Positions 36,471-55,321 are shown, counted from the stretch's first letter. The stretch: 64,000 nucleotides of DNA from an uncultured Bacteroidota bacterium (GCA_963701015.1 OY969556.1:3500424-3564423); one strand, 5' to 3'. Translations and numbers: made by a program. Notes: generated by a model not told the origin, from the letters alone.

Positions 36471-36515
36471 TGGAGAATATCGGAGTCGAACCGATGACCT
36501 TTTGCATGCCATGCA
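36471..36515 (-). repeat. attL: orphan 45-nt 3' fragment of tRNA-Ala(GGC), direct repeat of 55277-55321
   Basis: 45/45 identity with the 3' part of the intact tRNA at 55277-55350. The sequences diverge at 36516 versus 55322, so there is no 5' half here. Confidence 0.9.
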
Positions 36516-36632
36516 TAAAAACTCCATTTTTCTCTATTTTCTTATTTTAAAATTTACTTCTAAATACATGAAAAACAGCACTTTTACTACAAAATAACTT
36601 TACTTTTCTTTCGTATATTTCCTTATATTTAC

Positions 36633-36640
36633 TATATTTG
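36633..36640 (+). promoter_or_regulatory. candidate -7 promoter box (TAnnTTTG) for the integrase operon
   Basis: tatatttg lies 40 nt upstream of the ATG at 36680 and overlaps the 17-bp subterminal repeat. Confidence 0.4.
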
Positions 36641-36654
36641 TGTGCAAATCGTGT
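36638..36654 (+). repeat. 17-bp subterminal direct repeat, copy 1 (ttgtgtgcaaatcgtgt)
   Basis: Identical 17-mer at 55206-55222 in the same orientation. Both copies lie just inside the att repeats. Confidence 0.8.
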
Positions 36655-36679
36655 CTCCAAAAACAAACTTGCACACCCT

Positions 36680-37927
36680 ATGAAAATATACTCAAATTCT
36701 GGTGTTACAGGTACATTGTACCTAGATATCCGCAGAGCAAAAAAGGACAATGTGTATCCTGTTAAGTATAAAGTTACCTTTCAAAGAGCTCGTGTTTATT
36801 ATTCAACTGGTATTAATCTTTCAGTTGAAGACTTTGCAAATATAGAGAAGTCGAAGAAAAAATCAACTATAAAAACATTCGAACAACTTCTATCATTCAA
36901 AGATAGAATTGAAGAACATTTGGACGCATTAATCAAGGTCGGTGCTTTTACTTTTGAAGACCTTAACAAGCGTTTAGGGCGGGGCGCTGATAATAATATC
37001 TTAACTTTTTTTAACAACAAAGTGCAGAATTTGATTGATTCCGGGCAGATTGGCACATCAGTTTGGTACAAATACTCTGCAAACAGTATTAAGTTATACA
37101 CCAGCAATCCTTTAAAGTTCTCTGATATTACAGTTGACTGGCTAAAAAAGTTTGAAAGCTGGTTATTATTGGAAGATGAAAAGCAAGAAAAAAAGGCCAA
37201 AAGTTATACAACTATTTCAATGTACATGCGTGCATTGCAGTCTATTGTTAACATTGGTAAAGAGCAAGGGTACATTACAGAGGCTCAATATCCTTTTGGC
37301 AAAGGCAAATATGAAATTCCTACAGGTGAAGGCCGTAATTTAGCTTTAACACTTTCTCAAATAGGTCAGTTAATGCGCTATGAAGTTAAAACCGAGAACG
37401 AAGCACGTTGCCGTGATTTATGGTTTTTCTCCTATTTATGCAATGGTATTAATATGGTGAGCCTTTTAAAATTGAAATTTTCCGATATTTCAAACGGTGA
37501 AATTTCTTTCTATCGTCAAAAAACCATTCGCAAAACAAAGAACAAAAAGAAAATTTCAGCCCCTTTATTGCCACAAATGGAGCAAATAATAATAAAATGG
37601 GGCAATCAAAACAACTCATCAAATAATTTCATTTTCCCATTTTTAAAAGATGGTTTAAGCCCAATTGATGAAAAACGTATTGTACAAAATGTTACTCATT
37701 TGGTAAATGACAAAATGCAATTGATAGCTAAAAATTTAAACCTTCCTAAAATTTCAACTTACACAGCCCGCCATAGTTTTGCCACAGTATTAAAGCGAAG
37801 CGGGGCAAATATTGCATTTATTTCTGAAAGTTTAGGACACACAAACCTTGATACTACGGAAAATTATTTAGCTTCGTTTGAGCAAGATGAAAGGCTTAAA
37901 AATGCAACCCTGTTAACTAACTTTTAA
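36680..37927 (+). CDS. tyrosine-type site-specific integrase (Bacteroidota phage-integrase family)
   Basis: C-terminal catalytic blocks YTARHSFATVLKRSG (R-H-x-x-R region) and SLGHTNLDTTENYL (His...Tyr nucleophile). The ORF track starts at TTG 36638, but ATG 36680 (MKIYSN...) is the more likely start. Confidence 0.9.
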   Translation: MKIYSNSGVTGTLYLDIRRAKKDNVYPVKYKVTFQRARVYYSTGINLSVEDFANIEKSKKKSTIKTFEQLLSFKDRIEEHLDALIKVGAFTFEDLNKRLGRGADNNILTFFNNKVQNLIDSGQIGTSVWYKYSANSIKLYTSNPLKFSDITVDWLKKFESWLLLEDEKQEKKAKSYTTISMYMRALQSIVNIGKEQGYITEAQYPFGKGKYEIPTGEGRNLALTLSQIGQLMRYEVKTENEARCRDLWFFSYLCNGINMVSLLKLKFSDISNGEISFYRQKTIRKTKNKKKISAPLLPQMEQIIIKWGNQNNSSNNFIFPFLKDGLSPIDEKRIVQNVTHLVNDKMQLIAKNLNLPKISTYTARHSFATVLKRSGANIAFISESLGHTNLDTTENYLASFEQDERLKNATLLTNF

Positions 37928-37935
37928 TTATACCC

Positions 37936-39429
37936 ATGCATTTATTCAATACTTTAATTGATAAGAAAGAAAGTCATGTTTTAGACTTATGGGCAGATTT
38001 TGTTTTGTTATTCAATTTCAATGAAGAAACGGCAGAAATTGATAAACTAACCAATGATTTTATACTGAAATTTAAAACCGAAATTCAGGAAAATATCAGC
38101 CAACTTAGTGAAAATCAACAGTATCTTTATTTAGACCAATTAAAAACAGTGTTTAATAAAGAACTCCCCGGCCTTAACAACTATTTACATGAACGCTGTG
38201 TTAAAAGTATTGTAGAAAAAGAATTTCCAACTGGTAATGAGTTCGAAGAAGAAGTTTTTAAAAGTAAAGTTTCCAGTTTTAATGCTAAATACAAATATGT
38301 AAAAGCCGACTTTTCAACCCTCACAATTAATACAAATGAATTATTCCCGTATGTTAAGTATTGGCAAAAAGTAAAAACCGACATTCTTGACTTTGTAACT
38401 TTTGCTTTAAATTCTGTTACTGCAAAAAATTCCAATATAATTTCACAACCTAAGCTGACAGGTTTTAAAAAGTTTTTGTTACCGAACCAAATTGAAAGCC
38501 TGTACAATCAATTTAATATAAACCCTTACAGGGCAGTTCTGGTTACACTCGATATTTTGTTGACTGAGATAGAAGAAATAACAGCAACCAAACAACTTAT
38601 AACTTATATCGGTAATATTCTAAACCCAACCAGCAACCTAAATACATTAGGAAAACTTGTATCTAAAATTGATATTACCGACCCGGAAACCCAAATATTT
38701 TTTAATGTTATCCGTGATGCAGTTAATAATTATACTGCCTTTAATTTCCTGATGGACGATTATACAGAAATTAGGGAGTTTTTTGAAGGAGCTTACGCAC
38801 CAGTAAGAACTTTATTGTTGGATGCAGTAAAGAAAAAGATAATTACTTTAGATGAAATGCGTAAAATAAAATTGTATTCTAATAGTAATTTGATAGACCT
38901 TGACAGGATTGCAGACAAAGACCCTGAATTATTAGAACATTTAAAAGAACACGTACAACTTTTATACAGGAATATAATTTTAGACACCTGTATATTTCCT
39001 TTAGACCCGCTTTTAAACGGCAATATCAAATATGAAAAGTTTAAAAGCCCCTCTCTGTTCCCAGGCAAAGAACGTTCTCTACTAACCATTAAAGAAAATA
39101 TTTTCGGTAAAAGCACCAAAAAGCAGGAATCAGACGAAGTTTGGTTAAGCCGCTTTATTAAGAATGATTCTAAACTTGAACCTATTTTTCCAAATAGCAA
39201 AGGCGCAGGTCGCAAAGGTGATGAATTTACAGAGGCCAAAATATGGCAGGCTGCATTATTTGATATTATAAAAGATAAACTCAAAGAGTCCGGCTGTATT
39301 GGTACTGCAAGTAGATTATATTTCCAAACAAAGTGGGGTTTGGATAAACACGATACTTTTATAACCAATCGTTCCAAAAAAGAATCTTTTGCTAAAGCAA
39401 AAATTCAATTTCTTTCACTTCTAAATTAA
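37936..39429 (+). CDS. hypothetical protein, 497 aa, no recognisable domain
   Basis: Long uninterrupted ORF starting 8 nt after the integrase stop on the same strand. No motif I can assign. Confidence 0.5.
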   Translation: MHLFNTLIDKKESHVLDLWADFVLLFNFNEETAEIDKLTNDFILKFKTEIQENISQLSENQQYLYLDQLKTVFNKELPGLNNYLHERCVKSIVEKEFPTGNEFEEEVFKSKVSSFNAKYKYVKADFSTLTINTNELFPYVKYWQKVKTDILDFVTFALNSVTAKNSNIISQPKLTGFKKFLLPNQIESLYNQFNINPYRAVLVTLDILLTEIEEITATKQLITYIGNILNPTSNLNTLGKLVSKIDITDPETQIFFNVIRDAVNNYTAFNFLMDDYTEIREFFEGAYAPVRTLLLDAVKKKIITLDEMRKIKLYSNSNLIDLDRIADKDPELLEHLKEHVQLLYRNIILDTCIFPLDPLLNGNIKYEKFKSPSLFPGKERSLLTIKENIFGKSTKKQESDEVWLSRFIKNDSKLEPIFPNSKGAGRKGDEFTEAKIWQAALFDIIKDKLKESGCIGTASRLYFQTKWGLDKHDTFITNRSKKESFAKAKIQFLSLLN

Positions 39430-39600
39430 AAAACGACAGAATATAAAATAGGTTCCCTAATTTCTCTAAAAAAAACCTATTTTGTCAATTTTTAAATATC
39501 TGATATTTAATATTATATATACTTTATTTTCTTTATAGGTTTTTTGGAATCCCTATTTTTCAGGTATTTACTTGCATCCATAATTTATAAATAAAAAATT

Positions 39601-39963
39601 ATGGACTTAATCATTACCACGCCTGAAATATTGGCGCAAAATATCGAAAGTGCAGTTTTTAACGCCCTTTCTCGTTTCGAGAAAGCACCAGCCCAACAAA
39701 TCGAGCAACCCGACCGCATTAATATTGAAGAAGTAGCCACAATAACAGGCCTCAAAAAATCAAATATCTATAAACACACCTGTTATAAAACCATTCCGTT
39801 TGAAAAGTTTGCCAAACGCCTTGTTTTTAGTCGCAAAACAATATTAGCCTGGATGCAATCCAATACTATAGCTCCGGTTAATACCTCAATTGAAATGTCT
39901 GCCAGATTAACCAAAGAGGCAAATAAGAAACTTCATAAAAGCTATAAAACATCTAATAAATAA
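39601..39963 (+). CDS. helix-turn-helix (excisionase/AlpA-like, HTH_17-type) DNA-binding protein
   Basis: 120 aa. INIEEVATITGLKKSNIYKHTCYKTIPFEKFAKRLVFSRKTILAWM matches the MerR-superfamily excisionase-type HTH common in Bacteroidota mobile elements. Confidence 0.55.
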   Translation: MDLIITTPEILAQNIESAVFNALSRFEKAPAQQIEQPDRINIEEVATITGLKKSNIYKHTCYKTIPFEKFAKRLVFSRKTILAWMQSNTIAPVNTSIEMSARLTKEANKKLHKSYKTSNK

Positions 39964-39972
39964 TAGTTCACA

Positions 39973-40254
39973 ATGGAAGAAATTAAAGAAACACTTATTT
40001 CTATATCCGAAGGAATAAAGGAAATTAAAGCCCAGCTTAACACATTGGTTCAAACACAACCTGTAAACACTCCTATTAAATGGCTCGATTCTCAGGACGT
40101 TATATTGATGCTTCATATAAGTAAAAGGAAACTTCAATACCTGCGGAATAAAAACACACTTCCCTATTCTCGAATAAATAACAAGTTTTATTATAAAGCC
40201 TCTGATATTGATGAATTTCTAATAGGAAAATACAACGGGGTTACCAATCATTAA
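39973..40254 (+). CDS. helix-turn-helix (excisionase-family, HTH_17-type) DNA-binding protein
   Basis: 93 aa. WLDSQDVILMLHISKRKLQYLRNKNTLPYSRINNKFYYKASDIDEFL shows the same HTH pattern. Confidence 0.6.
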   Translation: MEEIKETLISISEGIKEIKAQLNTLVQTQPVNTPIKWLDSQDVILMLHISKRKLQYLRNKNTLPYSRINNKFYYKASDIDEFLIGKYNGVTNH

Positions 40255-40261
40255 TATTTAC

Positions 40262-41023
40262 ATGTTGATGGATTATATGAATATCCCGGTCGCATTCTGC
40301 GTTTATATGCTCAAAACGCAAAAGGTTAAGCAATTTCGCTTGTTTATATACCTGAAAACCATTTGCAGTGGCCATTTTAAACTATCAGATAGCCTAATTA
40401 AAAAGACTTGTTCTGAATTAGGTTATAAGTCCGAAAAGACATTTTTCGTTCATTTAAAATATTTGGTGCAAAAGAAATGGATAACAGTCAATAGTAAATC
40501 CGGCAATTACAGGCTTATTGGGTATAAACAGGTAGCAAACAGATTAAAAGTACCAACATCAAAAGGAGGTATCTTTTACCCTGAATATTCTAAATGTTTT
40601 ACAGGTTATATAGCAGCGGTTGTAATAACATTTTATATAAAATATAGAAGCCATAATGAGAGGCGGTCGGCATTGAAAAAGTGGAGTGCCAGGAAGAGCC
40701 GCCTCTCGGCTTCTTTTATTTTGCCTCATACTTACTTAGCAAAGGTACTTAAAGTTTCTAAAACTACTGCACAACGATATAGGCAATGTGCGATTGATAC
40801 TGGTTTAATTATAGCAACAAAGTCATATTTTAAAACTTATATACCCATAACCGAAATCCATAATTATAAAAAATACTCAGGTGTTGACCCAAATACAGTT
40901 CGTAAAATAAAAAAGACCATTTACGTTCAACAGGCTGACAAGCTGAAATCCTTGATAACATTAAGAAAGAAAAGAAATATTAGGTTTGTCTCAAAGAAGT
41001 TCGGAAAAAAGTGGTACCGATAA
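40262..41023 (+). CDS. hypothetical basic protein, possible winged-helix DNA-binding / initiator-like
   Basis: 253 aa, Lys/Arg-rich, with two HTH-like segments (SDSLIKKTCSELGYKSEKTFFVHLKYLVQKKWI; HTYLAKVLKVSKTTAQRYRQCAIDTGLI). Third gene of the 39601-41023 operon. Confidence 0.4.
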   Translation: MLMDYMNIPVAFCVYMLKTQKVKQFRLFIYLKTICSGHFKLSDSLIKKTCSELGYKSEKTFFVHLKYLVQKKWITVNSKSGNYRLIGYKQVANRLKVPTSKGGIFYPEYSKCFTGYIAAVVITFYIKYRSHNERRSALKKWSARKSRLSASFILPHTYLAKVLKVSKTTAQRYRQCAIDTGLIIATKSYFKTYIPITEIHNYKKYSGVDPNTVRKIKKTIYVQQADKLKSLITLRKKRNIRFVSKKFGKKWYR

Positions 41024-41087
41024 TAAGTGGATACATAAGGAGAACTATTTTTATTTCTATTTGACTTCAAAAATTAGAATCAATTCT

Positions 41088-41095
41088 TAAATTTG
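41088..41095 (+). promoter_or_regulatory. candidate -7 promoter box (TAnnTTTG) for the type I R-M operon
   Basis: taaatttg lies 92 nt upstream of the hsdR ATG. Confidence 0.3.
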
Positions 41096-41186
41096 ATGTT
41101 TGCTCAAAAAAGTCGTTCAAGTCCTTATTTTTAATAAAATTAGCACTTAAAACTATTATATAATCTAAATATATTAAGATTTCATA

Positions 41187-44186
41187 ATGTCCGAAAACCA
41201 AATAGAAGAAAACCTTATCAAGCAACTAACTGAGTTGAAGTACAACTATCGACCTGATATAGTTGATAGAAAAACGCTTGAACAGAACTTCAAAAATAAG
41301 TTTGAAACACTGAATCGTGTTCATCTTACAGAAAGCGAATTTTTACGTTTGCGTGAAGAAATTATTAATCCTGATCTATTTGTAGCATCTAAGATGCTTC
41401 GTGAAAGAAACTACTTTCAACGTGAAGACGGCACTCCTTTACATTATACCTTAGTAAACATCAAGGATTGGTGCAAAAATGATTATGAAGTTATCAATCA
41501 ATTACGCATCAATACTGAAAATAGTAATCACCGGTACGACATTATTTTACTGATTAATGGATTGCCTGTTGTTCAAATTGAATTAAAAAAAATAGACATT
41601 TCGCCACGAAAAGCTATGCAGCAAATTGTGGACTATAAAAATGATTCTGGAAACGGATATAGCAATACATTGATGTGTTTCATGCAGTTGTTTATTGTAA
41701 GCAACAGCAACAAAACTTATTATTTTGCGAATAATAAAAACCAGCATTTCAGTTTCAATGCCGATGAACAGTTTTTACCTATTTACGAATTAGCAGACGA
41801 AAACAATAAGAAAATTAACTATTTGGAAGAGTTTGCTGAAAAGTTTCTTAAAAAATGCACCCTTGGCGAAATGATAAGCAAGTATATGGTTTTGGTCGAA
41901 AGCGAACAGAAATTACTTGTGATGCGACCGTATCAAATTTATGCGGTAAAAGCAATAGTTGATTGCATACAACAAAATCGGGGCAATGGCTATATATGGC
42001 ACACTACAGGTAGTGGCAAAACTCTCACTTCTTTCAAAGCTTCTACCCTGTTAAAAGACAATCCCGATATTGAAAAATGCCTTTTTGTGGTTGACCGTAA
42101 AGACCTTGACCGACAAACCCGTGAAGAGTTCAATAAATTTCAAGAGGGCAGCGTTGAAGAAAACACCAATACCGAAACATTGGTGAAGCGTTTACTATCT
42201 ACCGACTACGCCGACAAGGTTATTGTTACCACTATTCAAAAATTAGGGTTGGCTTTAGATGGCACTTATAAGAAAAACTACAAAGAACGCTTAGAGCCAT
42301 TGAGCAAAAAGCGTGTTGTTTTCATATTTGACGAGTGCCACCGTTCACAGTTTGGCGATAATCACAAAGCCATAAAAGAGTTTTTCCCGAATGCTCAATT
42401 ATTTGGTTTTACTGGTACACCTATATTTGATGAAAATGCTACTTATAAGATTAGAGAAGATGAATATGGTGCATATAATACTACTGAGGATATATTTCAA
42501 AAAAGATTACACGCATACACCATTACCCACGCCATAGACGATAGAACCGTTCTTAAATTTCATATTGATTATTTCAAAGGCAAAGGCACTCAAAACCCCA
42601 AGCCTGGCGAACCTATTGCTCAACAGGCAGTAGTTGAAGCCATTCTCGACAAGCACAATGCAGCTACCAATTCAAGACGTTTCAATGCAACACTTGCAAC
42701 GGCTTCTATCAATAATGCCATTGAATATTATCAGTTATTCAAAACCATCCAAAAACAGAAGCAAGTAGAAAACGAGGATTACATTTCACTTAATATTGCT
42801 TGTGTATTCTCCCCGCCATCTCAATTAATTGCTAAAGATGGCGACCAACAAAGTCAAAAGAATGCAGCAGACATAAAACAACTTCAAGAAGATTTAACGC
42901 AGGAGAAAGAAGACAACAAACAAAATCCTGAAGAAAAGAAAAATGCTTTAATAGAAATTATTGCCGACTACAATTTGCAGTTTGGAACGAATCACTCTAT
43001 AAATGAATTTGATTTGTACTATCAAGATGTGCAACGGCGCATCAAAGACCAAAAATATAGCAACAAAGACTATCCGCACAAAAACAAAATTGACATTACC
43101 ATAGTGGTAGATATGTTGCTCACAGGTTTTGACTCCAAATACCTCAATACTTTGTATGTGGACAAAAACCTGAAATACCACGGATTGATACAGGCATTTT
43201 CCCGCACCAACCGTGTACTGAATGACACCAAGCCCTACGGGAATATTTTGGATTTCCGTTCACAACAAGATGCCGTAAATCAAGCAATTGCACTATTTTC
43301 AGGTGAAGACAGTGGAAAAGCAAAAGAAATTTGGTTGGTTGACCCTGCACCTGTTGTGATTGATAAATACAAACAAGCAGTTGAAGCCTTGGGCGTTTTT
43401 ATGAAAGAACACGATTTGTCAAACGAACCACAAGAAGTGTATAACCTGCAAGGTGATGCTACTCGCATAGCGTTTGTAAAAAATTTTAAGGAAGTACAAC
43501 GGTTAAAAACCCAATTAGACCAATACACCGACTTAGACGAAACACAACAAGCCAAAATTGAAGCCATTTTGCCTAAGGAAGCCTTACAAGAGTTTAAAAG
43601 CTCATATATAGAAACTGCCAAGCAATTGAGACTAATACAGCAAAAAGATGGCGACCAGGCACCTCCCGAAGTGCAACAATTAGATTTTGAATTTGTGCTT
43701 TTTGCTTCTGCCATTATTGATTACGACTATATAATGAACCTGATAGCCGACAGTACGCAAAAGAAACCAGCAAAGCAAAAGATGACCAAAATACAGGTGA
43801 TTAGCATACTGAGTGCTAATGCCAACCTGATGGACGAGCAGGAAGATTTAACGGAATACATTAATGGGCTTGACTGGAATAGTGGACAAGATGTAAACAC
43901 TTTACGAAAAGGGTACGAAACTTTTAGAGTCGTGAAAAATGAAAAGGAATTAGCTACCATAGCCCACAAACACGGATTGCAAACGTCAGACTTAAAAACT
44001 TTTGTAGCTAAAATAATGAGCCGAATGATTTTTGACGGGGAAAAACTCACTGACTTATTAGAACCACTTGAACTAAGCTGGAAAGAACGCAGGGTAAAAG
44101 AACTGGCTTTAATGGAAGACTTAGTACCCCAATTAAAAAAAATAGCCCAAGGGCGTGACATATCAGGATTAGCAGCTTATGAGTAA
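41187..44186 (+). CDS. hsdR: type I restriction endonuclease subunit R (EcoR124-like, type IC-style)
   Basis: 999 aa. N-terminal nuclease block NRYDIILLINGLPVVQIELK, helicase motif I TTGSGKT, motif II FIFDECHRSQ. Confidence 0.9.
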   Translation: MSENQIEENLIKQLTELKYNYRPDIVDRKTLEQNFKNKFETLNRVHLTESEFLRLREEIINPDLFVASKMLRERNYFQREDGTPLHYTLVNIKDWCKNDYEVINQLRINTENSNHRYDIILLINGLPVVQIELKKIDISPRKAMQQIVDYKNDSGNGYSNTLMCFMQLFIVSNSNKTYYFANNKNQHFSFNADEQFLPIYELADENNKKINYLEEFAEKFLKKCTLGEMISKYMVLVESEQKLLVMRPYQIYAVKAIVDCIQQNRGNGYIWHTTGSGKTLTSFKASTLLKDNPDIEKCLFVVDRKDLDRQTREEFNKFQEGSVEENTNTETLVKRLLSTDYADKVIVTTIQKLGLALDGTYKKNYKERLEPLSKKRVVFIFDECHRSQFGDNHKAIKEFFPNAQLFGFTGTPIFDENATYKIREDEYGAYNTTEDIFQKRLHAYTITHAIDDRTVLKFHIDYFKGKGTQNPKPGEPIAQQAVVEAILDKHNAATNSRRFNATLATASINNAIEYYQLFKTIQKQKQVENEDYISLNIACVFSPPSQLIAKDGDQQSQKNAADIKQLQEDLTQEKEDNKQNPEEKKNALIEIIADYNLQFGTNHSINEFDLYYQDVQRRIKDQKYSNKDYPHKNKIDITIVVDMLLTGFDSKYLNTLYVDKNLKYHGLIQAFSRTNRVLNDTKPYGNILDFRSQQDAVNQAIALFSGEDSGKAKEIWLVDPAPVVIDKYKQAVEALGVFMKEHDLSNEPQEVYNLQGDATRIAFVKNFKEVQRLKTQLDQYTDLDETQQAKIEAILPKEALQEFKSSYIETAKQLRLIQQKDGDQAPPEVQQLDFEFVLFASAIIDYDYIMNLIADSTQKKPAKQKMTKIQVISILSANANLMDEQEDLTEYINGLDWNSGQDVNTLRKGYETFRVVKNEKELATIAHKHGLQTSDLKTFVAKIMSRMIFDGEKLTDLLEPLELSWKERRVKELALMEDLVPQLKKIAQGRDISGLAAYE

Positions 44187-45450
44187 AGAGATAAATAAAT
44201 TGATACCTGAATTGCGGTTTCCTGAATTTGAGAATGAGGGAGAATGGGAGGTAACGAAATTTGAAAAACTTTGCAAGTTTATTCGTGGCCCATTTGGAGG
44301 CGCTCTTAAAAAAGAAATTTTTGTCAAGGATGGTTATGCTGTTTATGAACAGTCACATGCTATCTACAATGACTTTAGCTCATTTAGATATTTCATAACA
44401 GAAGAGAAATTCAATGAGTTAAAACGCTTTTCAATACTTCCTTTTGATATTATAATGAGCTGTTCAGGTACTATGGGTAAGTTTGCTATAGTTCCAAAAG
44501 AGGCAAAAAAAGGAATTATAAACCAAGCTCTTTTAAAGTTAACTGTAAGAGAAGTCTATAATGTTAATTTCGTTAAAGAAATTTTGGAATTACCAGTTAA
44601 TCAGGATAAGTTGTTATCTCAATCTGCTGGTGGTGCAATAAAGAATGTGGTTGAAGTTGCACAAATTAAAGAGATTAAGTTATCAATTCCCAAACTCAAA
44701 GAACAACAAAAAATCGCCTCATGTCTTTCTTCCTTAGATGCTGTAATTGCAGCCCATAGCCAAAAATTAGAAGCCTTAAAAGACCAAAAAAAAGGCTTAT
44801 TGCAAAACCTTTTCCCACAAGAAGGTGAAACTGTGCCGAAATATCGTTTCCCTGAGTTTGTAAAAGATGAGGTGTGGGTGGAGAAAACTTTGGATGAAGT
44901 AGCAACATTTTTAAAAGGAAAAGGAATATCCAAAGCTGATATAGTTGAAAATGGGAGTTTACCATGTATCAGATATGGAGAACTTTATACCCACTACAAA
45001 GAAACTATTGGTATTATAAAATCTTATACGAATTTAAGTGCAGATGATTTAGTGTTAAGTCAAGCTAATGATGTAATTATTCCAGCATCAGGTGAAACCC
45101 AAATTGATATTGCCACAGCATCTTGTGTCTTAGAAAAAGGAATCGCCCTTGGAGGTGATTTAAATATTATTAGGTCAAAGATTAATGGTGTTTTTTTATC
45201 TTATTACCTGAATAATGTTAAGAGAATGGATATAGCGCAATTGGCTCAAGGTATTTCAGTAGTTCATCTTTATCCTAATCAATTAAAAACATTAATGATT
45301 AATATTCCGAAACCAAAGGAGCAAGAAAAAATCGCCAGTTGTCTTTCTTCTTTAGATGATTTATTCACGGCACAAATGGAGAAAATAGAGCAATTGAAGC
45401 TGCACAAAAAGGGTTTGATGCAGGGCTTGTTTCCAAAAGTAATTGATTAA
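44179..45450 (+). CDS. hsdS: type I restriction-modification specificity subunit
   Basis: 423 aa. Two target-recognition halves, each followed by the conserved helix IPK(L/P)KEQ(Q/E)KIASCLSSLD. The start overlaps the hsdR stop by 8 nt. Confidence 0.9.
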   Translation: MSKEINKLIPELRFPEFENEGEWEVTKFEKLCKFIRGPFGGALKKEIFVKDGYAVYEQSHAIYNDFSSFRYFITEEKFNELKRFSILPFDIIMSCSGTMGKFAIVPKEAKKGIINQALLKLTVREVYNVNFVKEILELPVNQDKLLSQSAGGAIKNVVEVAQIKEIKLSIPKLKEQQKIASCLSSLDAVIAAHSQKLEALKDQKKGLLQNLFPQEGETVPKYRFPEFVKDEVWVEKTLDEVATFLKGKGISKADIVENGSLPCIRYGELYTHYKETIGIIKSYTNLSADDLVLSQANDVIIPASGETQIDIATASCVLEKGIALGGDLNIIRSKINGVFLSYYLNNVKRMDIAQLAQGISVVHLYPNQLKTLMINIPKPKEQEKIASCLSSLDDLFTAQMEKIEQLKLHKKGLMQGLFPKVID

Positions 45451-46586: not shown

Positions 46587-48236
46587 ATGACACAAAAAGA
46601 ACAACAACAACTGGGTAAAACCCTTTGGAATATAGCCGATGAACTAAGAGGTGCAATGAATGCAGATGATTTTCGAGATTATATGCTTTCGTTTCTTTTC
46701 CTTCGGTATTTATCATACAACTACGAAGAATCAGCAAAAAAGGAATTAGGAAAAGATTACCCTGATGATACTCTAAAGGATGTTATGTCAAAACTTAAAG
46801 TTAAAACACCTTTGGAGATTTGGTATAAAGAAAACCCAAAGGAAGTTGAAGATTTTGAAAAGCAAATGAGGCGTAAAGTTCATTATGTTATCAAACCACA
46901 ACACCTATGGAGCAATATTACCGAATTGGCACGTACTCAAGATGGAGAGTTACTAAAAACTTTGGGGAAAGGTTTTAAATACATAGAAAATGAATCGTTT
47001 GAAGGTTCTTTTCAGGGTTTATTTTCTGAAATTAATTTGAACTCTGAAAAACTAGGAAAAACAGAAACGGAAAGAAATAAAAAACTCTGTACCATCATTC
47101 AAAAAATTGCTGAAGGTATAGCAGATTTTTCAACAGATTCCGACACCCTTGGCGATGCTTATGAGTATTTAATTGGACAGTTTGCCGCAGGTTCGGGTAA
47201 AAAAGCGGGCGAGTTTTATACGCCACAACAAATCTCAACCATCTTATCTGAAATCGTAACATTAGACAGTCAAGACCCAACAATGGGTAAGAAGAAAAAA
47301 TTTGATAAAGTGCTTGATTTTGCTTGCGGTTCAGGTTCTTTATTGCTGAATGTAAGAAAACGAATAAAAGATAATGACGGCACTATTGGCAAAATATATG
47401 GGCAGGAAAAGAACATAACTACTTACAACCTTGCCCGAATGAATATGCTTTTGCACGGTATGAAAGACACGGAGTTTGAGATATTTCACGGTGACACACT
47501 TCTCAATCAATGGGATATGCTCAACGAAATGAATCCATCTAAAAAAATTGAATTTGATGCTATTGTAGCTAATCCACCGTTTAGTTTACGTTGGGAACCA
47601 GACGATACGTTGGCAGAAGACTTTCGTTTTAAAAGCTATGGTTTAGCGCCAAAATCAGCAGCCGACTTTGCTTTTTTATTACATGGTTTTCACTTTCTTG
47701 GGAAAGAGGGTACAATGGCTATTATATTACCGCATGGTGTTTTATTCCGTGGCGGCGCAGAAGAAAAAATCCGTACCAAACTTTTAAAAGATAACAATAT
47801 TGATACGGTAATTGGGTTGCCTTCAAACTTATTCTATTCAACTGGTATTCCTGTTTGTATTTTGATATTGAAAAAATGCAAAAAGGAAGATGATGTACTT
47901 TTCATTAATGCCAGTGAACATTATGAAAAAGGCAAACGTCAAAACACCCTCAGAGAAGGCGAAGACGGTGAACCAAACGATATTCAAAAAATTGTTGAAA
48001 CATATCAATTCCGTCCTGAAAATGTTGAAAGATATGCTCGTAGAGTTTCAATGGAAGAAATCGAGAAGAACGGCTACAATCTTAACATTTCAAGATATGT
48101 AAGTACATCATTTGACGAAGTACAGATTGACTTAAAAAAAGTAAACACAAAATTGACAGCAATAAATGAAAGTATAAAAACGAACACAGTTAAACACAAT
48201 GAATTTTTGAAAGAGTTGGGATTACCCCCTATTTAA
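46587..48236 (+). CDS. hsdM: type I restriction-modification DNA methyltransferase subunit (N6-adenine)
   Basis: 549 aa. GEFYTPQQIS, SAM-binding DFACGSGSLL, catalytic IVANPPFS. Confidence 0.92.
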   Translation: MTQKEQQQLGKTLWNIADELRGAMNADDFRDYMLSFLFLRYLSYNYEESAKKELGKDYPDDTLKDVMSKLKVKTPLEIWYKENPKEVEDFEKQMRRKVHYVIKPQHLWSNITELARTQDGELLKTLGKGFKYIENESFEGSFQGLFSEINLNSEKLGKTETERNKKLCTIIQKIAEGIADFSTDSDTLGDAYEYLIGQFAAGSGKKAGEFYTPQQISTILSEIVTLDSQDPTMGKKKKFDKVLDFACGSGSLLLNVRKRIKDNDGTIGKIYGQEKNITTYNLARMNMLLHGMKDTEFEIFHGDTLLNQWDMLNEMNPSKKIEFDAIVANPPFSLRWEPDDTLAEDFRFKSYGLAPKSAADFAFLLHGFHFLGKEGTMAIILPHGVLFRGGAEEKIRTKLLKDNNIDTVIGLPSNLFYSTGIPVCILILKKCKKEDDVLFINASEHYEKGKRQNTLREGEDGEPNDIQKIVETYQFRPENVERYARRVSMEEIEKNGYNLNISRYVSTSFDEVQIDLKKVNTKLTAINESIKTNTVKHNEFLKELGLPPI

Positions 48237-48503: not shown

Positions 48504-49019
48504 ATGACTGATTCACTTTATGCTGAAAATATTGACTTTTTAGCTGCAAATAAAAAGGATGAGGAATTTTTTAATTCAAGTGAAGCACACGCCCAAATAG
48601 TTTTATCATCTATGGTGAAATATTCCAATAAAGATGTTAATATCTATTGTGGGAACATGTGTACTGACGTTTCTAATGACCCTACGTATTTAAAAGAAAT
48701 CAAATCATTTTTAGATGACCGTAATGGCACTATTAATGTATTATTGTGTGATTATAACGATTCATTTAAAGAAAAAGAAATATATAAATTATTGTCTGCT
48801 TACATTCCTTTAAAGGTTAAAGTAAAAAAGACAAAAAAGGTACTCTTATTTAATAACAAACCTGTTCATTTTACTATATCAGACAGCTCAGCTTTTCGTT
48901 TAGAAACAGACATTGATGCTAAAATGGCTAGGGGTAATTTCAATGACCCTAACAGTGCAATTAAATTAAACGAGTATTTTTTTACTTTATTTAATCAACA
49001 GGCCAGCACTGAAGTTTAA
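48504..49019 (+). CDS. hypothetical soluble protein, 171 aa, unknown family
   Basis: Clean ORF with its own promoter-like box and no TM segment. The secondary-structure layout is only vaguely reminiscent of a single Nuc-type PLD domain, and there is no HxK(x)4D motif. Confidence 0.5.
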   Translation: MTDSLYAENIDFLAANKKDEEFFNSSEAHAQIVLSSMVKYSNKDVNIYCGNMCTDVSNDPTYLKEIKSFLDDRNGTINVLLCDYNDSFKEKEIYKLLSAYIPLKVKVKKTKKVLLFNNKPVHFTISDSSAFRLETDIDAKMARGNFNDPNSAIKLNEYFFTLFNQQASTEV

Positions 49020-49033
49020 ATTTAAAGCTTAAA

Positions 49034-49984
49034 ATGTCGTTACTTAACACAATCTCAGATTATACTGACATAATTGCTATTTCAATAGGTTTAAATCTTG
49101 CTTATGTTATTATAACTAACTACACATTAAAAGGTAATGATAATAAAGCAAGTTTTTTCGACATACTATCTCTATATGTTGATAGTGCTATAAGTCGTAT
49201 AGTTAAGAGAAAATCAAAAAAGTTAATTACATTAAAAAATCTACAACTTAAGCTTGAATATTATTTAGCTTCAAAATCTTCAAATAACAGTGAAAAAAAA
49301 GCTATTGTAAAGAATATTGATGATGAGCTCAAAAATATTGACACATCAGTAAATGATTTAATTGAGAATAAAAAAATAAAAGTTAAAAGAGCTATAAGAG
49401 CTAAATACTATTCTCATATTTCATTATTACTTGCAACTTATGGTATTTTTATTCTTTTCTTATCTCCTTTAGAAAAAAGAATTTTTCTAAGCTTTAACAG
49501 CATATTAGTTTATTTAAATTTTATCACTTTTTTTTGTGTCATACATTCAATTATTTGGGAATTTCAAACTCTTTATATAAAAATTAAGAAACTAAGTATA
49601 TTAAATACTATTATTTGTGATTTGAGTAATTTATTAGCTCCAAGATTTCGCAACATTATATATTCTCAATTTATTTTTATTATAGCTTTAATAATTGCTA
49701 TTTATTGTAAATATTTTAATACTTATGTTGCCTTGAAATTTCCATTTTTTTATAGAAATGCTTTAGTATTTGCAACGGTTTTACTTTTTTCAAATTTTAT
49801 ATTTTATACAATTTTTTGTTTTATTCGTGTTGAAATTGTTGTAAGTCGCTTTAAACGAAAATTAAAAGCTCTTGATATTTCAAATAAAGTAATAACTTAC
49901 AATGGCCTGTTAGCTCCTATATTAAAGGATTTAGAAAATGACCCATTAGTTGTTGTTTCAGAAATTGTTTTAACACAGAAATAG
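49034..49984 (+). CDS. hypothetical integral membrane protein, 316 aa (1 N-terminal TM, charged linker, about 4 C-terminal TMs)
   Basis: Hydrophobic stretches IIAISIGLNLAYVIITNY, ISLLLATYGIFILFLSPL, ILVYLNFITFFCVIHSIIW, IIYSQFIFIIALIIAIYC, LVFATVLLFSNFIFYTIFCFI. Starts 14 nt after the preceding ORF. Confidence 0.5.
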   Translation: MSLLNTISDYTDIIAISIGLNLAYVIITNYTLKGNDNKASFFDILSLYVDSAISRIVKRKSKKLITLKNLQLKLEYYLASKSSNNSEKKAIVKNIDDELKNIDTSVNDLIENKKIKVKRAIRAKYYSHISLLLATYGIFILFLSPLEKRIFLSFNSILVYLNFITFFCVIHSIIWEFQTLYIKIKKLSILNTIICDLSNLLAPRFRNIIYSQFIFIIALIIAIYCKYFNTYVALKFPFFYRNALVFATVLLFSNFIFYTIFCFIRVEIVVSRFKRKLKALDISNKVITYNGLLAPILKDLENDPLVVVSEIVLTQK

Positions 49985-50218: not shown

Positions 50219-50932
50219 ATGAAATCTATAATTTCACTTTTGCTTTTAATATATCCCTTTGCTTTATTTGGTCAGTTTAACATCAATTCCGTATTACCTC
50301 AGAAAGTAAAAAATGCAAAACTTATAAAATATTCCAGTTACGAAGTAATGTTCGATACAATTGAATGTGCGCCTGTTTATTCAGCTTATATAATAACAAA
50401 ATCTGAAATTTCGCACCATTCAATTAAAAGGGCAAAAGAAAGATTCAAAAATGATAAGTCAGTGTCATGTGTAAAAGTAAAAAATTATACAAACTCAGGC
50501 TATGACAAAGGCCATTTAACCCCGGCTGCCGATATGGAATATTCTCAGCAAAGCATGGACGATTGTTTTTATATCACAAATATTTGCCCTCAGTTACATG
50601 ATTTCAATGCTGGTATTTGGGAACATTTAGAAATGAAAGTAAGAGATTGGGCAGAAAAATACGATAGTTTGTTAATCATCAGCGCACCAGTATTAGAAAC
50701 TTGCATAAAAAAAGGAAATCTCACAGTCCCAACCCAATTTTACAAAATAATTTACTCCATTCAGCAAAACACAGCCACCGCCTTTTTAATGGATGCCAAC
50801 CTGATCGAAGGTTCAATATTCAATTATCAAACCACAGTCTCAAAAATTGATAGCATTACAAAGCTCAATTATTTCAAAGTAAATGGTAGTTCAAACAGGT
50901 TAAATTTTATGGATACTAATTTTTTGAAATGA
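50219..50932 (+). CDS. secreted DNA/RNA non-specific endonuclease (Endonuclease_NS / NucA family)
   Basis: 237 aa with signal peptide. Active-site block SGYDKGHLTPAAD (DRGH-type) followed by NICPQ...FNAGIWEHLE. Confidence 0.8.
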   Translation: MKSIISLLLLIYPFALFGQFNINSVLPQKVKNAKLIKYSSYEVMFDTIECAPVYSAYIITKSEISHHSIKRAKERFKNDKSVSCVKVKNYTNSGYDKGHLTPAADMEYSQQSMDDCFYITNICPQLHDFNAGIWEHLEMKVRDWAEKYDSLLIISAPVLETCIKKGNLTVPTQFYKIIYSIQQNTATAFLMDANLIEGSIFNYQTTVSKIDSITKLNYFKVNGSSNRLNFMDTNFLK

Positions 50933-51127: not shown

Positions 51128-51415
51128 TTAACTACATTCAGGAAGACTAAGAAGATTATCCACAGTTGTATCGTCTGATGTAGTTCTAAGATATTTACGC
51201 CCATTATGTGTAGATATAAAGACATTTACATCTCTATTGCCTACCTTAACATGATAATTATAAATTCCTTGCTCGATGTGTCTTATACCCTCTTCTTCTG
51301 TTATTTTAATACGGTTGCCATAAGTTCCCCAATCACCTCCTATGTGTGTTATTCTTTGGTGTGAGTCCTGTCTTAAAGGTTTGTTGATACATTTAATCTG
51401 TCTAGAAGTTGCCAT
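51128..51415 (-). CDS. DUF3892 domain protein
   Basis: 95 aa. The pattern ITHIGG...W...I...I......Y.V......V.V......KYLRT..D....DNLLSLPEC matches DUF3892 as I remember it. Confidence 0.65.
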   Translation of the reverse strand: MATSRQIKCINKPLRQDSHQRITHIGGDWGTYGNRIKITEEEGIRHIEQGIYNYHVKVGNRDVNVFISTHNGRKYLRTTSDDTTVDNLLSLPECS

Positions 51416-51971: not shown

Positions 51972-52589
51972 ATGTTTAGAATATTACAAAATAATATTAT
52001 CGGGAATATCTTAATTTCTTTCGCTGAAAAAATTCCTTATCTTTCTTTAACAAAGGCTTTAAAACTTTTATATTTATTAGATGAGCATTCTGTTAAGGAA
52101 ATTGGCGTTCCTGTAACTTGGCTTGAATATAAAGTTTGGGAATTAGGTCCAGTTGCAGAAGATATCTATAATGAAATTAAATACAGCGAAAAAATTAGTA
52201 TTTATGGTAAAGTAACATCTTTAGATGAATTCATTACAATAAAGAAAGGGGCAAATAATGCTAAAAAAACCGAAGAGACTTATATTTTAGCTAAAAAAAC
52301 ATTTGATGAATCCGAATTTACAGAATATGAGTTAGAGTTAATAAACAGTATTATAGAAAAATATGGTAAACTTAATGCTAAAGAACTTGTAGATTTATTG
52401 CATAAAGAAAATACACTTTGGTCTAAAATTGTTAAAGAAAATAATCTGACAGAGCACTTCAAAAAATTTAATAGTAAATCAAATTATACAATTCCTTTTA
52501 GTAATTTAATTGATAATGAACTAAAGGAGATGGCTTATAATGCTGCTTTCGAATCGCTTGATTTTGAAAAAGAGTTAACTGCTAATTAA
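51972..52589 (+). CDS. Panacea (DUF4065) domain protein, SocA/PanA-type antitoxin candidate
   Basis: 205 aa. LTKALKLLYLLDEHSVKEIGVPVTWLEYKVWELGPVAEDIY fits the DUF4065 core (KLxYLxD...G.P....Y.aW..GPV). Confidence 0.7.
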   Translation: MFRILQNNIIGNILISFAEKIPYLSLTKALKLLYLLDEHSVKEIGVPVTWLEYKVWELGPVAEDIYNEIKYSEKISIYGKVTSLDEFITIKKGANNAKKTEETYILAKKTFDESEFTEYELELINSIIEKYGKLNAKELVDLLHKENTLWSKIVKENNLTEHFKKFNSKSNYTIPFSNLIDNELKEMAYNAAFESLDFEKELTAN

Positions 52590-52601
52590 AAGTATTTTAA
52601 A

Positions 52602-53075
52602 GTGCCTTCTCTATTTAAATTTGAGCCTGCTTCCATTTATAAAGTCAATAATTACGTATTTGATGATGATAATTCTGTTAGAGATAAATATCTGATTGTT
52701 TTACACATTAATCAAGATGAACTATATCTAATTAATACATTAACCACTACAAATAAAAGAACAGGAAAACAAGATGTATTTAATGGCTGTAATTCTCTGG
52801 ATGGTTTTCATTTTTATTTCTTTCAAGAAAAGCATGAAATAGGGAAAGAGAAATTCTTTTTTGATAAAGATACTTATATATTCTTCTATAAAAACATAAG
52901 AAAACAACCTATTAGTAAATATGATGAGCATATAAAAAATAGCAGTATAATGAAATTGGACTCATTAACTGATTATGAATATGGTAGATTATTGAAGTGT
53001 ATTTTAAAAACCAAACATATTACTCCCGATATAAAAAAAGAGTTGACAACAGTTAAGGAAGGTATTTCAAATTAG
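52602..53075 (+). CDS. hypothetical protein, candidate toxin partner of the DUF4065 protein
   Basis: 157 aa, GTG start 12 nt after the upstream stop. The N-terminal pattern (IYKVNNYVF...RDKYLIVLH...LINTLTT) is loosely MazF/PemK-barrel-like. No firm family. Confidence 0.4.
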   Translation: MPSLFKFEPASIYKVNNYVFDDDNSVRDKYLIVLHINQDELYLINTLTTTNKRTGKQDVFNGCNSLDGFHFYFFQEKHEIGKEKFFFDKDTYIFFYKNIRKQPISKYDEHIKNSSIMKLDSLTDYEYGRLLKCILKTKHITPDIKKELTTVKEGISN

Positions 53076-53953
53076 CATTACAAACTAAATTCATTCTATT
53101 TCTTATTCAAAACGATTAATTGGTATTTCTCATTATTCTATGTCAAGCATTACACCTGCCCTTATGTCTAATAAAATATAAAACAAAATTTATGGAAAAC
53201 ATCCCACAGGGCAAAAAACCCAGATGTTTGGCAAAATAAATTGTTAATATTTTAAAGGTATTTTACCAAACACCCCCTGTCTTTTTTGCCCCTCCACTCA
53301 GCCGTCCCTTCTGTAATTTTTTCTGTCATGCTTTTTGTATCAGCCCACATGCAGCACATTGCTTTTTCTCTAATTGTTTTAAAGCGGTATTAAAAAGCAA
53401 AGAGCTGCCCAACCCCACAAACAAAAAGACCCGCCAAAAAAAATTACCCCAAGCTATGTTTACATAATGTGCATTATATAACTGCCTATTTAAGCGGTAT
53501 AAATAACATGTTTTCGGCATTCATATAATGAACATTATGTACAAGGGCGTTGCCAAATAGCCACACGCCGACCCACGCCAGACACACACAGCCGGCACAT
53601 TGTATTTTGTTTTTTATCATGTTTATTTTTTAAGGTAAAAACAAAATCCAAAGAGCCGCCTGTCAGCCATTCCAATGGTGCAAGAGCTGTAAAAAAGCCA
53701 GCCACCACTCTAAATCCAACCTAAAATGTCTTTTTTTCAGCACTTGCATTCTCTTTAATCCACCAACAAACCCCGACCACCACCCCTATTAAAGTGGTGT
53801 AAACATCTATTTAAGCTATTGAAACGAGAATAACCCCGACAAGCTCCCTGCAAACTCGCAAACCCAGAGCCGGGGTTATTTCCCGTTCCAACAGCACATC
53901 ATTATCAACATTATAGTAAATTAGCCATCACTCAAACTAAGCGGCCACTATCT

Positions 53954-54025
53954 CGTTGCACACTTCACAAACTCTCCGTTGCACTTCGTTGTTTGCTTGT
54001 GTTCACTTCGTTACTGTCCACTTAC
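53954..54025 (+). repeat. iteron-like array: four CACTT(C/A) cores, two embedded in CGTTGCAC(AC)TTC and two in CACTTCGTT
   Basis: Cores at 53961-53966, 53982-53987, 54004-54009 and 54019-54024, spaced 21, 22 and 15 nt. Confidence 0.6.
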
Positions 54026-54227
54026 TTTTTACCCAATGCACAATGAATTAGGGTTACGCACATTAAGAAATAAGCGGTATTTACATATTAAAAAATAAAA
54101 AAGGGCAGCAAATTTAGGCTGGCTCACACATGCCCTCACTAAACAAAAAAGCAAGGAATTTCCGGCATAAACACAAGCCACTGCTTAAAAGCCCTCATTT
54201 ATTCCGTTCCTCCTTGCTTTTTTCCTA

Positions 54228-54268
54228 AAGCCAGCCAGTTCAATGGCTTTCTTTTTCTTTTTTTCTCG
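54228..54268 (+). terminator. intrinsic terminator at the end of the ORF-free block
   Basis: aaagcca (54228-54234) pairs with tggcttt (54244-54250) across a 9-nt loop, followed by ctttttctttttttctcgtttttt. Confidence 0.5.
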
Positions 54269-54379
54269 TTTTTTCTTTCTCTTTTGAAAAATGTATTTTA
54301 ATAATGAAGATATAAAGGTGCATTTTGAAGCAAATCTCAGCATAAGAACCATTTATATATAACTATAATATCATTAAAG

Positions 54380-54387
54380 TAATTTTG
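54380..54387 (+). promoter_or_regulatory. candidate -7 promoter box (TAnnTTTG) upstream of the DUF6266-like gene
   Basis: taattttg lies 115 nt upstream of the ATG at 54502. The 14-nt direct repeats at 54424-54459 lie between the box and the start codon. Confidence 0.3.
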
Positions 54388-54423
54388 ATAAGGATTTGAT
54401 AAACTGATGTATTAGGACTAAAA

Positions 54424-54459
54424 TATTACCAAGTCTATACCAAAGTATTACCAAATCTA
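54424..54459 (+). promoter_or_regulatory. two 14-nt direct repeats (TATTACCAA[G/A]TCTA) spaced 22 nt; candidate operator
   Basis: Copies at 54424-54437 and 54446-54459 with 13/14 identity, about 45 nt upstream of the ATG at 54502. Confidence 0.4.
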
Positions 54460-54501
54460 AGTTGTTTTAAAATAAAGTATAAACCTCAAAAATTTAAAAA
54501 G

Positions 54502-55143
54502 ATGGGTATAATAAAACAAGGTATTTTAGGTGGTGTTTCCGGCGGAGTCGGAACAGTCATTGGTGGTTCATGGAAAGGAATTGATTATGTTAGGTCACGT
54601 CCAAGCTCTGTTACAAATCCAAATTCAGACAAGCAACAAAGCCAGCGATCTAAATTCTCAACTGTAATAAGCTTTTTAAAGCCACTTACTGGCTTAGTAA
54701 CAGTCACTTTTAGAAACTATGCGATAGGTATGTCAGGCTTTAATGTGGCAATGTCTTATAATATCAAGAATGCAATAACCGGAACCTCTCCTGACTTCAC
54801 AATTGATTATACATTAGCCTTACTTAGTCAGGGCGATCTTTCAAAAGCCTTTAATCCTAAAGTTGCAGTTTCGGGAAGTAATACTATTGCATACACATGG
54901 GTAAACAATAGTGATGAAGGAAACGCCAATGAAGATGACCAGGCAATATTAATGGCATATTTTGAAAGCAATGGCCAAGCAGTCTATCAGTTTACAACCG
55001 TAAAAAGAACCGCTGCAACCGCTAATTTAAGCATTCCTGCAAGTTATACGGGATTAGTTGCAAAATGCTGGATAGCATTTCAAACAGCTGATGGTCTAGA
55101 CTTTTCAAATAGTATTTATGTTGGAGAAGTTACTATGGCTTAA
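54502..55143 (+). CDS. DUF6266-like protein
   Basis: 213 aa. The Gly-rich N-terminus GILGGVSGGVGTVIGGSWKGIDYVRSRP...NPNSDKQQSQRSKF resembles Bacteroidota DUF6266 family proteins from memory. Confidence 0.45.
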   Translation: MGIIKQGILGGVSGGVGTVIGGSWKGIDYVRSRPSSVTNPNSDKQQSQRSKFSTVISFLKPLTGLVTVTFRNYAIGMSGFNVAMSYNIKNAITGTSPDFTIDYTLALLSQGDLSKAFNPKVAVSGSNTIAYTWVNNSDEGNANEDDQAILMAYFESNGQAVYQFTTVKRTAATANLSIPASYTGLVAKCWIAFQTADGLDFSNSIYVGEVTMA

Positions 55144-55205
55144 TTAATTCGATTAGTTTATTATATTAAAATGCCATTCTTTAGGATGGTATTTTTTTTA
55201 TAATG

Positions 55206-55222
55206 TTGTGTGCAAATCGTGT
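55206..55222 (+). repeat. 17-bp subterminal direct repeat, copy 2 (ttgtgtgcaaatcgtgt)
   Basis: Identical to 36638-36654. Lies 54 nt inside attR. Confidence 0.8.
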
Positions 55223-55230
55223 GTAAATTT

Positions 55231-55267
55231 AAATAAAAGAGGGCTCCCATTTATGTGAAAGCCCTTT
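55231..55267 (-). terminator. hairpin plus T-run downstream (minus strand) of tRNA-Ala, on island-derived DNA
   Basis: agggct (55240-55245) pairs with agccct (55260-55265). The complement of aaataaaa gives a T-rich run on the minus strand. Confidence 0.4.
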
Positions 55268-55276
55268 ATTTGCGGG

Positions 55277-55321
55277 TGGAGAATATCGGAGTCGAACCGA
55301 TGACCTTTTGCATGCCATGCA
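55277..55321 (-). repeat. attR: 45-bp direct repeat forming the 3' part of the intact tRNA-Ala
   Basis: Identical to 36471-36515. Confidence 0.9.

Follow-up and report, generated by a model that had tools for sequence, protein, structure and literature searches.

What placed an 18.8-kb block of accessory genes between two copies of one short sequence, one of them part of a tRNA gene, in the chromosome of an uncultured Bacteroidota bacterium? The locus lies in a stretch of 64,000 nucleotides (GCA_963701015.1 OY969556.1:3500424-3564423; hereafter the window, with positions counted from its first letter), and an initial annotation of this DNA had read bases 36471-36515 and 55277-55321 as the two attachment sites, attL and attR, of an element integrated in the 3' half of tRNA-Ala(GGC). 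The analysis leads to a similar answer: the block is very probably a genomic island that was placed by its own tyrosine integrase in the chromosomal tRNA-Ala(GGC) gene. The features that define its two edges are the following.

36470-36515, perfect repeat: attL, the displaced 46-bp copy of the 3' part of tRNA-Ala (nucleotide 29 to one base past the discriminator)
55276-55321, perfect repeat: attR, the 46-bp copy that forms the 3' part of the intact tRNA
55275-55350, minus strand: intact tRNA-Ala(GGC), called by ARAGORN
36431-36462, minus strand: hairpin and T-run on the chromosomal side, just 3' of the displaced tRNA fragment, from direct reading
55240-55265, minus strand: terminator-like hairpin on the island side, from the terminator scan

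The 45-mer of the initial annotation occurs in two copies only in the window, at the positions given above, and the repeat finder extended the identity by one base to the left, so that the perfect direct repeat measures 46 bp, not 45; no second long repeat spanning the island interval was found by it in the window. The right copy had been described as the 3' part of a complete minus-strand tRNA-Ala, with which both ARAGORN and the Rfam tRNA model (62 bits at 55277-55350) agree, and the fold contains the G3:U70 pair that is typical of alanine tRNAs. The repeat starts at tRNA nucleotide 29, the third base of the 5' strand of the anticodon stem. At the inner edge of the right copy the sequence runs on into the 5' half of the tRNA, while at that of the left copy the tRNA match is lost right after ...CATGCA and unrelated AT-rich DNA follows; ARAGORN called no tRNA there, in keeping with the orphan fragment that had been proposed. 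A generic repeat occurring beside many unrelated loci does not fit the distribution of the 46-mer, which is confined to its two positions in the window and absent from IMG/VR and from the 89 loci searched.

Outside the tRNA 3' end, the left side reads ATTTGCG|TGGAG and the right side ATTTGCGGG|TGGAG, so that the additional ATTTGCG reported for both ends, with its 2-nucleotide (nt) indel, is indeed seen in the sequence. The annotated hairpin and T-run beside the left copy are visible by eye (stem AATGGC/GCCATT, a 16-nt loop, then TTTT on the minus strand), but the terminator scan gave no call there because it takes loops of 3-8 only. This hairpin is probably the original terminator of tRNA-Ala, and the island-borne hairpin at 55240-55265 now serves the regenerated gene.

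That the repeat came from an error of assembly, or from a duplication that arose by chance or locally and has nothing to do with mobile DNA, can be practically dismissed; nothing speaks for it except the general possibility. The 45-mer had no match in 100 dinucleotide-preserving shuffles, the architecture recurs in sister elements at other tRNAs, and a separate Logan short-read assembly (run ERR11718638) reproduces both junctions and breaks exactly at the repeat edges. In that run, one contig (L002) ends at 36499, 30 nt into the attL repeat, another (L001) starts at 55321, and a third of 16.75 kb (L107) extends from 36486, 30 nt before the inner edge of the repeat, to about 53235. The run thus confirms the junction sequences in a second, short-read assembly and is silent on excision.

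On tRNA-gene (tDNA) islands, integration splits the tRNA gene and sequence from the island restores it, so that the regenerated gene and the displaced fragment mark the island ends (PMC4383910); an anticodon-centred attachment site of the incoming element (attP) was assigned to 2083 of 3919 islands in that survey. The start of the repeat at nucleotide 29, within the anticodon stem, matches the anticodon-centred class, and the window island is a class-A tDNA genomic island, which is a very common kind. Like the Islander islands of class A (Williams 2002; Hudson et al. 2015, PMC4383910), it has an intact, regenerated tRNA, a displaced direct 3' fragment, an internal non-Xer tyrosine integrase next to the fragment and a block of identity that begins in the anticodon stem, and no essential difference between them was noted. 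The earlier reading of the two repeats as products of anticodon-type tRNA integration is supported by all sequence-level elements of a tDNA island. The genes outside the repeats were said to be housekeeping and those inside accessory, and the profile matches agree: GroEL, YchF, ApbE and a Reg_prop beta-propeller protein are encoded on the left, and a TonB-dependent receptor, DUF4249, an M13 peptidase and PorP/SprF on the right, a Bacteroidota chromosomal context. By itself such an island is ordinary, as Islander holds thousands of this class; here it provides exact boundaries for 18.8 kb of DNA that entered a poorly sampled soil Bacteroidota genome by horizontal transfer.

The recombination functions are concentrated at the left end of the island, in a module of conserved genes, with one further motif copy at the right end.

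36516-36679, plus strand: P arm and integrase upstream region, conserved in the sister loci L090, L091, L092, L097 and L093
36680-37927, plus strand: tyrosine integrase, 415 amino acids (aa) from the ATG or 429 aa from the upstream TTG at 36638, matched by Pfam and by the PHROG integrase family
37936-39429, plus strand: 497-aa backbone protein specific to this element family
39601-39963, plus strand: HTH_17 protein, candidate excisionase or regulator (Pfam HTH_17; PHROG 'excisionase and transcriptional regulator')
39973-40254, plus strand: second HTH_17 protein, candidate excisionase or regulator (Pfam HTH_17; PHROG)
40262-41023, plus strand: 253-aa backbone protein, last gene of the conserved left module, with sub-threshold HTH_36 and HTH_17 matches only
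55207-55222, plus strand: second copy of TGTGTGCAAATCGTGT, on the P' arm, a candidate arm-type site with a variant at the same place in L099

The ATG of the integrase gene lies 165 nt inside the left repeat (36680 against 36515), at the distance first annotated. Its product contains the Pfam domains Arm-DNA-bind_5 (PF17293), Phage_int_SAM_5 (PF13102) and Phage_integrase (PF00589) and ends in ARHSFAT...GHTNLDTTENY, and it scored only 18-57 bits against the Xer and integron models of NCBIfam, whose cut-offs are 220-435, so that it is neither Xer nor integron-type. At the usual place of the first catalytic arginine the protein reads ...LCNGINMVSL..., as judged by eye; the IntDOT and NBU integrases of Bacteroides presumably carry a similar substitution, a likeness likewise judged by eye and not by alignment to them. 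Upstream of the gene, the motif TGTGTGCAAATCGTGT is located at 36639-36654, about 25 nt before the ATG both in the window and in the sister loci, and an inverted half-site, TTGCACAC, at 36669-36676. The second copy of TGTGTGCAAATCGTGT, which is exact, lies between the DUF6266 gene at the right end of the island and the tRNA, as does its counterpart in L099. Both motifs are candidate arm-type or operator sites, and the presence of TGTGTGCAAATCGTGT as direct copies on both arms, together with the arm-binding domain of the integrase, makes it a reasonable candidate for an arm-type site.

From this anatomy a simple course of integration can be proposed. The circular form would carry in its attP a copy of the tRNA from nucleotide 29 to the 3' end, with a trailer and a terminator. 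Recombination would take place within the 46-bp identity, most likely at the anticodon stem-loop, after which the island copy would complete the tRNA (attR) and the original 3' part would come to lie 18.8 kb away, next to the integrase gene (attL). The two HTH_17 proteins would then be likely excision or directionality factors, and TGTGTGCAAATCGTGT near both ends the likely arm-type site bound by the N-terminal domain of the integrase.

The mobilizable transposons NBU1 and NBU2 of Bacteroides integrate at the 3' ends of tRNA-Leu and tRNA-Ser. The window island resembles them in being a Bacteroidota element of similar size that targets a tRNA gene and encodes a tyrosine integrase of the Bacteroidetes type together with small accessory proteins of the excision type. 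In contrast to them, it has no Mob relaxase or primase detectable with Pfam, NCBIfam or PHROGs and carries defence cargo, and its identity block of 46 bp begins in the anticodon stem, whereas NBU elements use a short core at the extreme 3' end of the tRNA.

Homologues of the integrase are found by the thousands in Bacteroidota (Rufibacter, Pontibacter, Bacteroidales), and some of the elements that encode them have the same architecture at other tRNA genes. The backbone from the integrase to the 253-aa gene (36558-41111) is about 80-82% identical at the nucleotide level in L091, L092, L097 and L098. In L091 and L092 the integrase is 82% identical and the backbone about 82% identical in nucleotides, the cargo differs from that of the window (a PRTase-CE protein and a different type I system), and upstream of the integrase gene lies a displaced 3' piece of tRNA-Val(TAC) that ends at the tRNA position where the window fragment ends. 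L099, from the same assembly as L091, contains a frameshifted DUF6266 gene 92% identical to that of the window, with the same hairpin and motif layout, followed by an intact tRNA-Val(TAC) and then by RecG and other housekeeping genes. Between the tRNA-Val fragment and the intact gene, 46 bp are identical (L091:260-305 and L099:1524-1569), at the same tRNA positions as in the window; these two ends are on separate contigs, and their linkage is deduced from their common assembly and their homology with the window. Each attP carries its own tRNA segment, trailer and terminator; the sequences of the Ala and Val trailers are different, and each forms a hairpin with a T-run.

Two further groups of loci extend this pattern. 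The integrase of L090 is 86% identical and adjoins a tRNA-Ala fragment with a different T-arm and an identical inner boundary (...CATGCA|TAAAAAC), and that of L093-L095 is 59% identical and adjoins a fragment of tRNA-Pro(GGG) cut at the same position. The same backbone precedes still other cargo in L096 (a BT4734-like protein, a PriCT_2/DUF3987 protein and a type I restriction-modification (R-M) system) and in L097 (hsdM, DUF3800, hsdS and a Macro-domain protein). Judging from these sister sequences, the family appears to be, or recently to have been, mobile, and its target tRNA appears to have changed while the sublocation was kept. Closely related integrases (59-86% identical) at different tRNA genes and at the same sublocation make a clean case that is useful for the study of attachment-site specificity switching. 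The L090 element is cut short directly after the integrase by the insertion sequence IS21 (IstA/IstB; L090:11301-13597), and the rest of its backbone begins another contig of the same assembly (L096:1-60); either the insertion split the element or the assembly broke at the insertion sequence.

Several results weigh against the placement of the island by its own integrase. No island-free allele, circular attP junction or restored target (attB) junction was found in the data searched. A scan of the GTDB species representatives with the TonB receptor of the flank gave at most 56% identity and no synteny, the exact predicted attB pattern had 0 matches in JGI metagenomes, the flanking propeller protein had only paralogue-level matches in metagenomes (at most 47% identity), and the soil-metagenome contigs, which are of low depth, short and too fragmentary, contained no joints. 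ERR11718638, the only Logan run with identical flanks, holds the island too. The GC (guanine plus cytosine) content of the island as a whole is not distinct, and scans of the island open reading frames (ORFs) against Pfam, PADLOC, NCBIfam and PHROGs detected no transfer, replication or packaging genes in this copy, that is, no relaxase, coupling protein, replication or virion gene. A tRNA-Ala beside the receptor gene was present in no GTDB locus scanned, and there is no close relative of the source species among the GTDB representatives. An island-free strain in ERR11718638 was considered and rejected, as the 16.75-kb island contig is present and all breaks fall at the edges of the repeat or the tRNA.

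Neither an empty site nor a circular junction was found, so that current mobility is inferred. The same missing excision product and empty site, together with the absence of transfer genes, would also suit a fixed remnant that integrated once and is now kept for its defence genes only, and decay is visible among the relatives, in the IS21 insertion of L090 and the frameshifted DUF6266 gene of L099. Such a remnant is nevertheless rather doubtful here. No backbone ORF is damaged in this copy, the integrase and the two HTH_17 genes included, and the orphan repeat is still identical at 46 of 46 positions although it is under no tRNA selection.

Integration by its own enzyme remains the favoured account of the island, in which a chassis of two parts frames exchangeable defence cargo. 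On the left this chassis consists of the integrase, the 497-aa protein, the two HTH_17 genes and the 253-aa protein, and on the right of a noncoding region and DUF6266. The gene for the 497-aa protein stands directly 3' of the integrase wherever the integrase end of a locus is present. The protein had no match in Pfam, PHROGs, NCBIfam or PADLOC; a word-indexed search gave seven homologues and a search among 1.84 billion proteins eight representatives (E <= 0.001), and its AlphaFold2 model is poor and unreliable, with a predicted local distance difference test (pLDDT) score of 51. The 253-aa protein shows no similarity to the proteins at the equivalent position in other elements. Sequence searches of the PDB with five island proteins, including this one and the 171-, 316- and 157-aa proteins of the cargo, returned nothing significant. 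The cargo lies between the two chassis parts, and the island genes are almost all on the plus strand.

41187-44186, plus strand: HsdR, type I restriction subunit (Pfam HSDR_N, SWI2_SNF2, T1R_D3-like and EcoR124_C)
44179-45450, plus strand: HsdS, type I specificity subunit (Pfam Methylase_S, two stretches)
45454-46575, plus strand: PrrC-type anticodon nuclease, inside the hsd operon between hsdS and hsdM (PADLOC PrrC; Pfam AAA_13)
46587-48236, plus strand: HsdM, type I methyltransferase subunit (Pfam HsdM_N and N6_Mtase)
48504-49984, plus strand: two genes without a family, for 171 aa (48504-49019) and 316 aa (49034-49984), GC 0.23-0.28
50219-50932, plus strand: DNA/RNA non-specific endonuclease (Pfam Endonuclease_NS, E = 6e-44)
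51128-51415, minus strand: DUF3892 protein (Pfam, E = 8e-18)
51972-52589, plus strand: SocA/Panacea-domain antitoxin (Pfam SocA_Panacea, E = 1.5e-22; NCBIfam SocA below the cut-off)
52602-53075, plus strand: 157-aa protein, presumed toxin partner of the Panacea antitoxin

The genes hsdR, hsdM and hsdS form one cluster with an embedded prrC, whose product is predicted to act as an anticodon nuclease; in a system of this type it would cleave tRNA-Lys at the anticodon once released by phage anti-restriction. The PADLOC PrrC match (E = 8.7e-137) covers residues 9-367 of 373, and the translation contains the NTPase motifs GTGKT and IDDP and an R-x3-E...H motif, which we take to be the catalytic triad of E. 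coli PrrC. In the E. coli prr locus, PrrC is encoded in the EcoprrI type I R-M operon, and the gene order is hsdM-hsdS-prrC-hsdR. The two loci agree in the position of prrC between hsd genes, in the N-terminal NTPase motif and in the C-terminal R..E..H; they differ in that the window operon has the order hsdR-hsdS-prrC-hsdM, belongs to a Bacteroidota host and is carried on a tRNA-integrated island. The type I R-M/PrrC system of this genome very probably arrived on a site-specific element. In PMC3458546, prrC is described as always linked to an R-M locus, a rule that the embedded gene in the window follows.

Neither the 171-aa nor the 316-aa protein had a match in Pfam, PADLOC, NCBIfam, PHROGs or the PDB, and no recognisable toxin domain was detected in the 157-aa partner of the Panacea antitoxin (Pfam, PADLOC, PDB). 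The segment 48000-53000, which holds the two genes without a family, the nuclease, DUF3892 and the Panacea pair, has a GC content of 23-30%, compared with about 33% in the rest of the island and in the flanks; the lower GC content of this distal cargo suggests mosaic acquisition. A 41-bp segment before hsdR, at its start codon (41172-41212), is 90% identical to a segment before hsdM, the first cargo gene of L097 and L098, and the cargo genes that follow it differ between these loci and the window. It might represent a promoter or leader common to these loci, or else a junction at which cargo was exchanged.

A conserved integrase chassis with strain-variable R-M or defence cargo is found in P4-like satellites and in the mobilizable genomic islands of the SXT/R391 system. 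The window island shares this organization, a conserved integrase chassis and variable defence cargo. However, its chassis has no homology to theirs, and no phage-derived or oriT/mobI genes are recognisable in it.

The right part of the chassis comprises three features.

53076-54501: 1.4-kb noncoding region upstream of DUF6266, C-rich on the plus strand, GC skew -0.30
54502-55143, plus strand: DUF6266 protein, conserved right-end gene (Pfam, E = 8e-66)
55168-55195, plus strand: terminator-like hairpin 3' of DUF6266, from the terminator scan, conserved in L099

The longest ORF in the noncoding region measures at most 64 aa, Rfam gave no match on it, and tblastn found no HTH_17 pseudogene there. 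Ordered blocks of the region recur upstream of the DUF6266 genes of distant Bacteroidota (L099, L100-L103, L105/L106). One block consists of CCCAAGCTATGTT, then ACATAAT, an imperfect hairpin interior of 65-75 nt and ATTATGT, and the resulting long imperfect hairpin lies at 53462-53540 in the window. Further blocks are CCACCACCC; an A-rich block whose minus strand has a -7 box of the Bacteroidetes type; a long polypyrimidine tract; and the promoter-like TAATTTTG of DUF6266. Differences in the hairpin arms keep the pairing between loci (TGCC/GGCA against AGCC/GGCT, and TTATAT/ATATAA against TTATAGG/CCTATAA), a comparison of three independent sequences only, which are too few for a covariation test. 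The folding z-scores of the region are modest on either strand (minus, -3.2; plus, -2.7). The region could be an origin of transfer, or it could be regulatory or specify an RNA; all three identities are possible.

The first of these identities bears on how the island might travel. An integrative mobilizable element without a relaxase would be excised by its own integrase and transferred by a co-resident conjugative element through an origin of transfer (oriT) in the noncoding region, at the hairpin 53462-53540. The island has no relaxase or type IV secretion system, yet the family is spread over Bacteroidota hosts and tRNA targets, and the long imperfect inverted repeat, with conserved base sequences and compensatory arm changes, occurs solely beside DUF6266 genes among the 108 sequences compared (1.16 Mb); both points would suit this route. 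We consider it unlikely all the same. No nick-site consensus and no relaxase partner were identified, no conjugative element is seen in the window, the hairpin is missing from the Panacibacter DUF6266 locus (L104), and the same noncoding features fit an RNA or a regulatory region.

DUF6266 has 417 homologues in Bacteroidota and is not mentioned in the literature searched. Its AlphaFold2 model (pLDDT 84) combines an N-terminal glycine-rich part of strands and a helix with a C-terminal FN3-like beta-sandwich, and the structure matches are limited to this generic sandwich. FN3 domains are common in phage tail proteins; the integrase and the excisionase-type genes, and the PriCT_2/DUF3987 primase-helicase of one relative, as in many satellites, could likewise be read as signs of a prophage remnant or of a phage satellite packaged by a helper phage. 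Such an origin is very unlikely, as the FN3 fold is generic, the PHROGs matches are confined to the integrase, the HTH proteins and DUF3892, with no capsid, terminase, portal or tail gene, and IMG/VR scans with the integrase, DUF6266 and the 45-mer returned nothing.

The island and its family, which has a chassis with the orphan 497-aa protein and DUF6266, are not described in the literature searched. We tentatively put forward, as a possibility, an undescribed Bacteroidota family of defence-cargo elements on a fixed two-part chassis: the integrase, the orphan 497-aa protein, two HTH_17 proteins and the 253-aa protein on one side, and a conserved noncoding element (about 1.4 kb), which includes a long, putatively covarying hairpin, and DUF6266 on the other. 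Such elements would switch between the targets Ala-GGC, Val-TAC and Pro-GGG through replacement of the 46-bp tRNA segment and the trailer of attP, with the crossover position unchanged, and the noncoding element might serve as a transfer origin or as a structured RNA for the control of mobility or cargo. The family-level chassis and the noncoding element are the only parts of the locus that might repay more work, and the chassis is recognisable enough to help find variable defence cargo in Bacteroidota.

The right part of the chassis is also present with other cargo in distant genomes. In Croceibacter atlanticus, an identical DUF6266 protein ends two different cargo sets (L105:1-10642 and L106:1-10463), one with MmeI, a helicase, T5orf172 and an SDH protease, and the other with a type I R-M system and a Panacea pair, which suggests that a cargo-exchange hotspot across Bacteroidota has its fixed end marked by DUF6266. 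A metagenomic island (L100:81-8775) contains DUF6266 (74% identical in nucleotides) and the same noncoding blocks (77-78% identical), alongside genes for Piwi (pAgo), McrBC and an enzyme of the MmeI type. In L100 the insertion of a 419-aa gene, with a probably spurious 129-aa ORF, separates two of the conserved noncoding blocks, and in L105 a tRNA-Arg(TCT) lies 2.9 kb beyond DUF6266.

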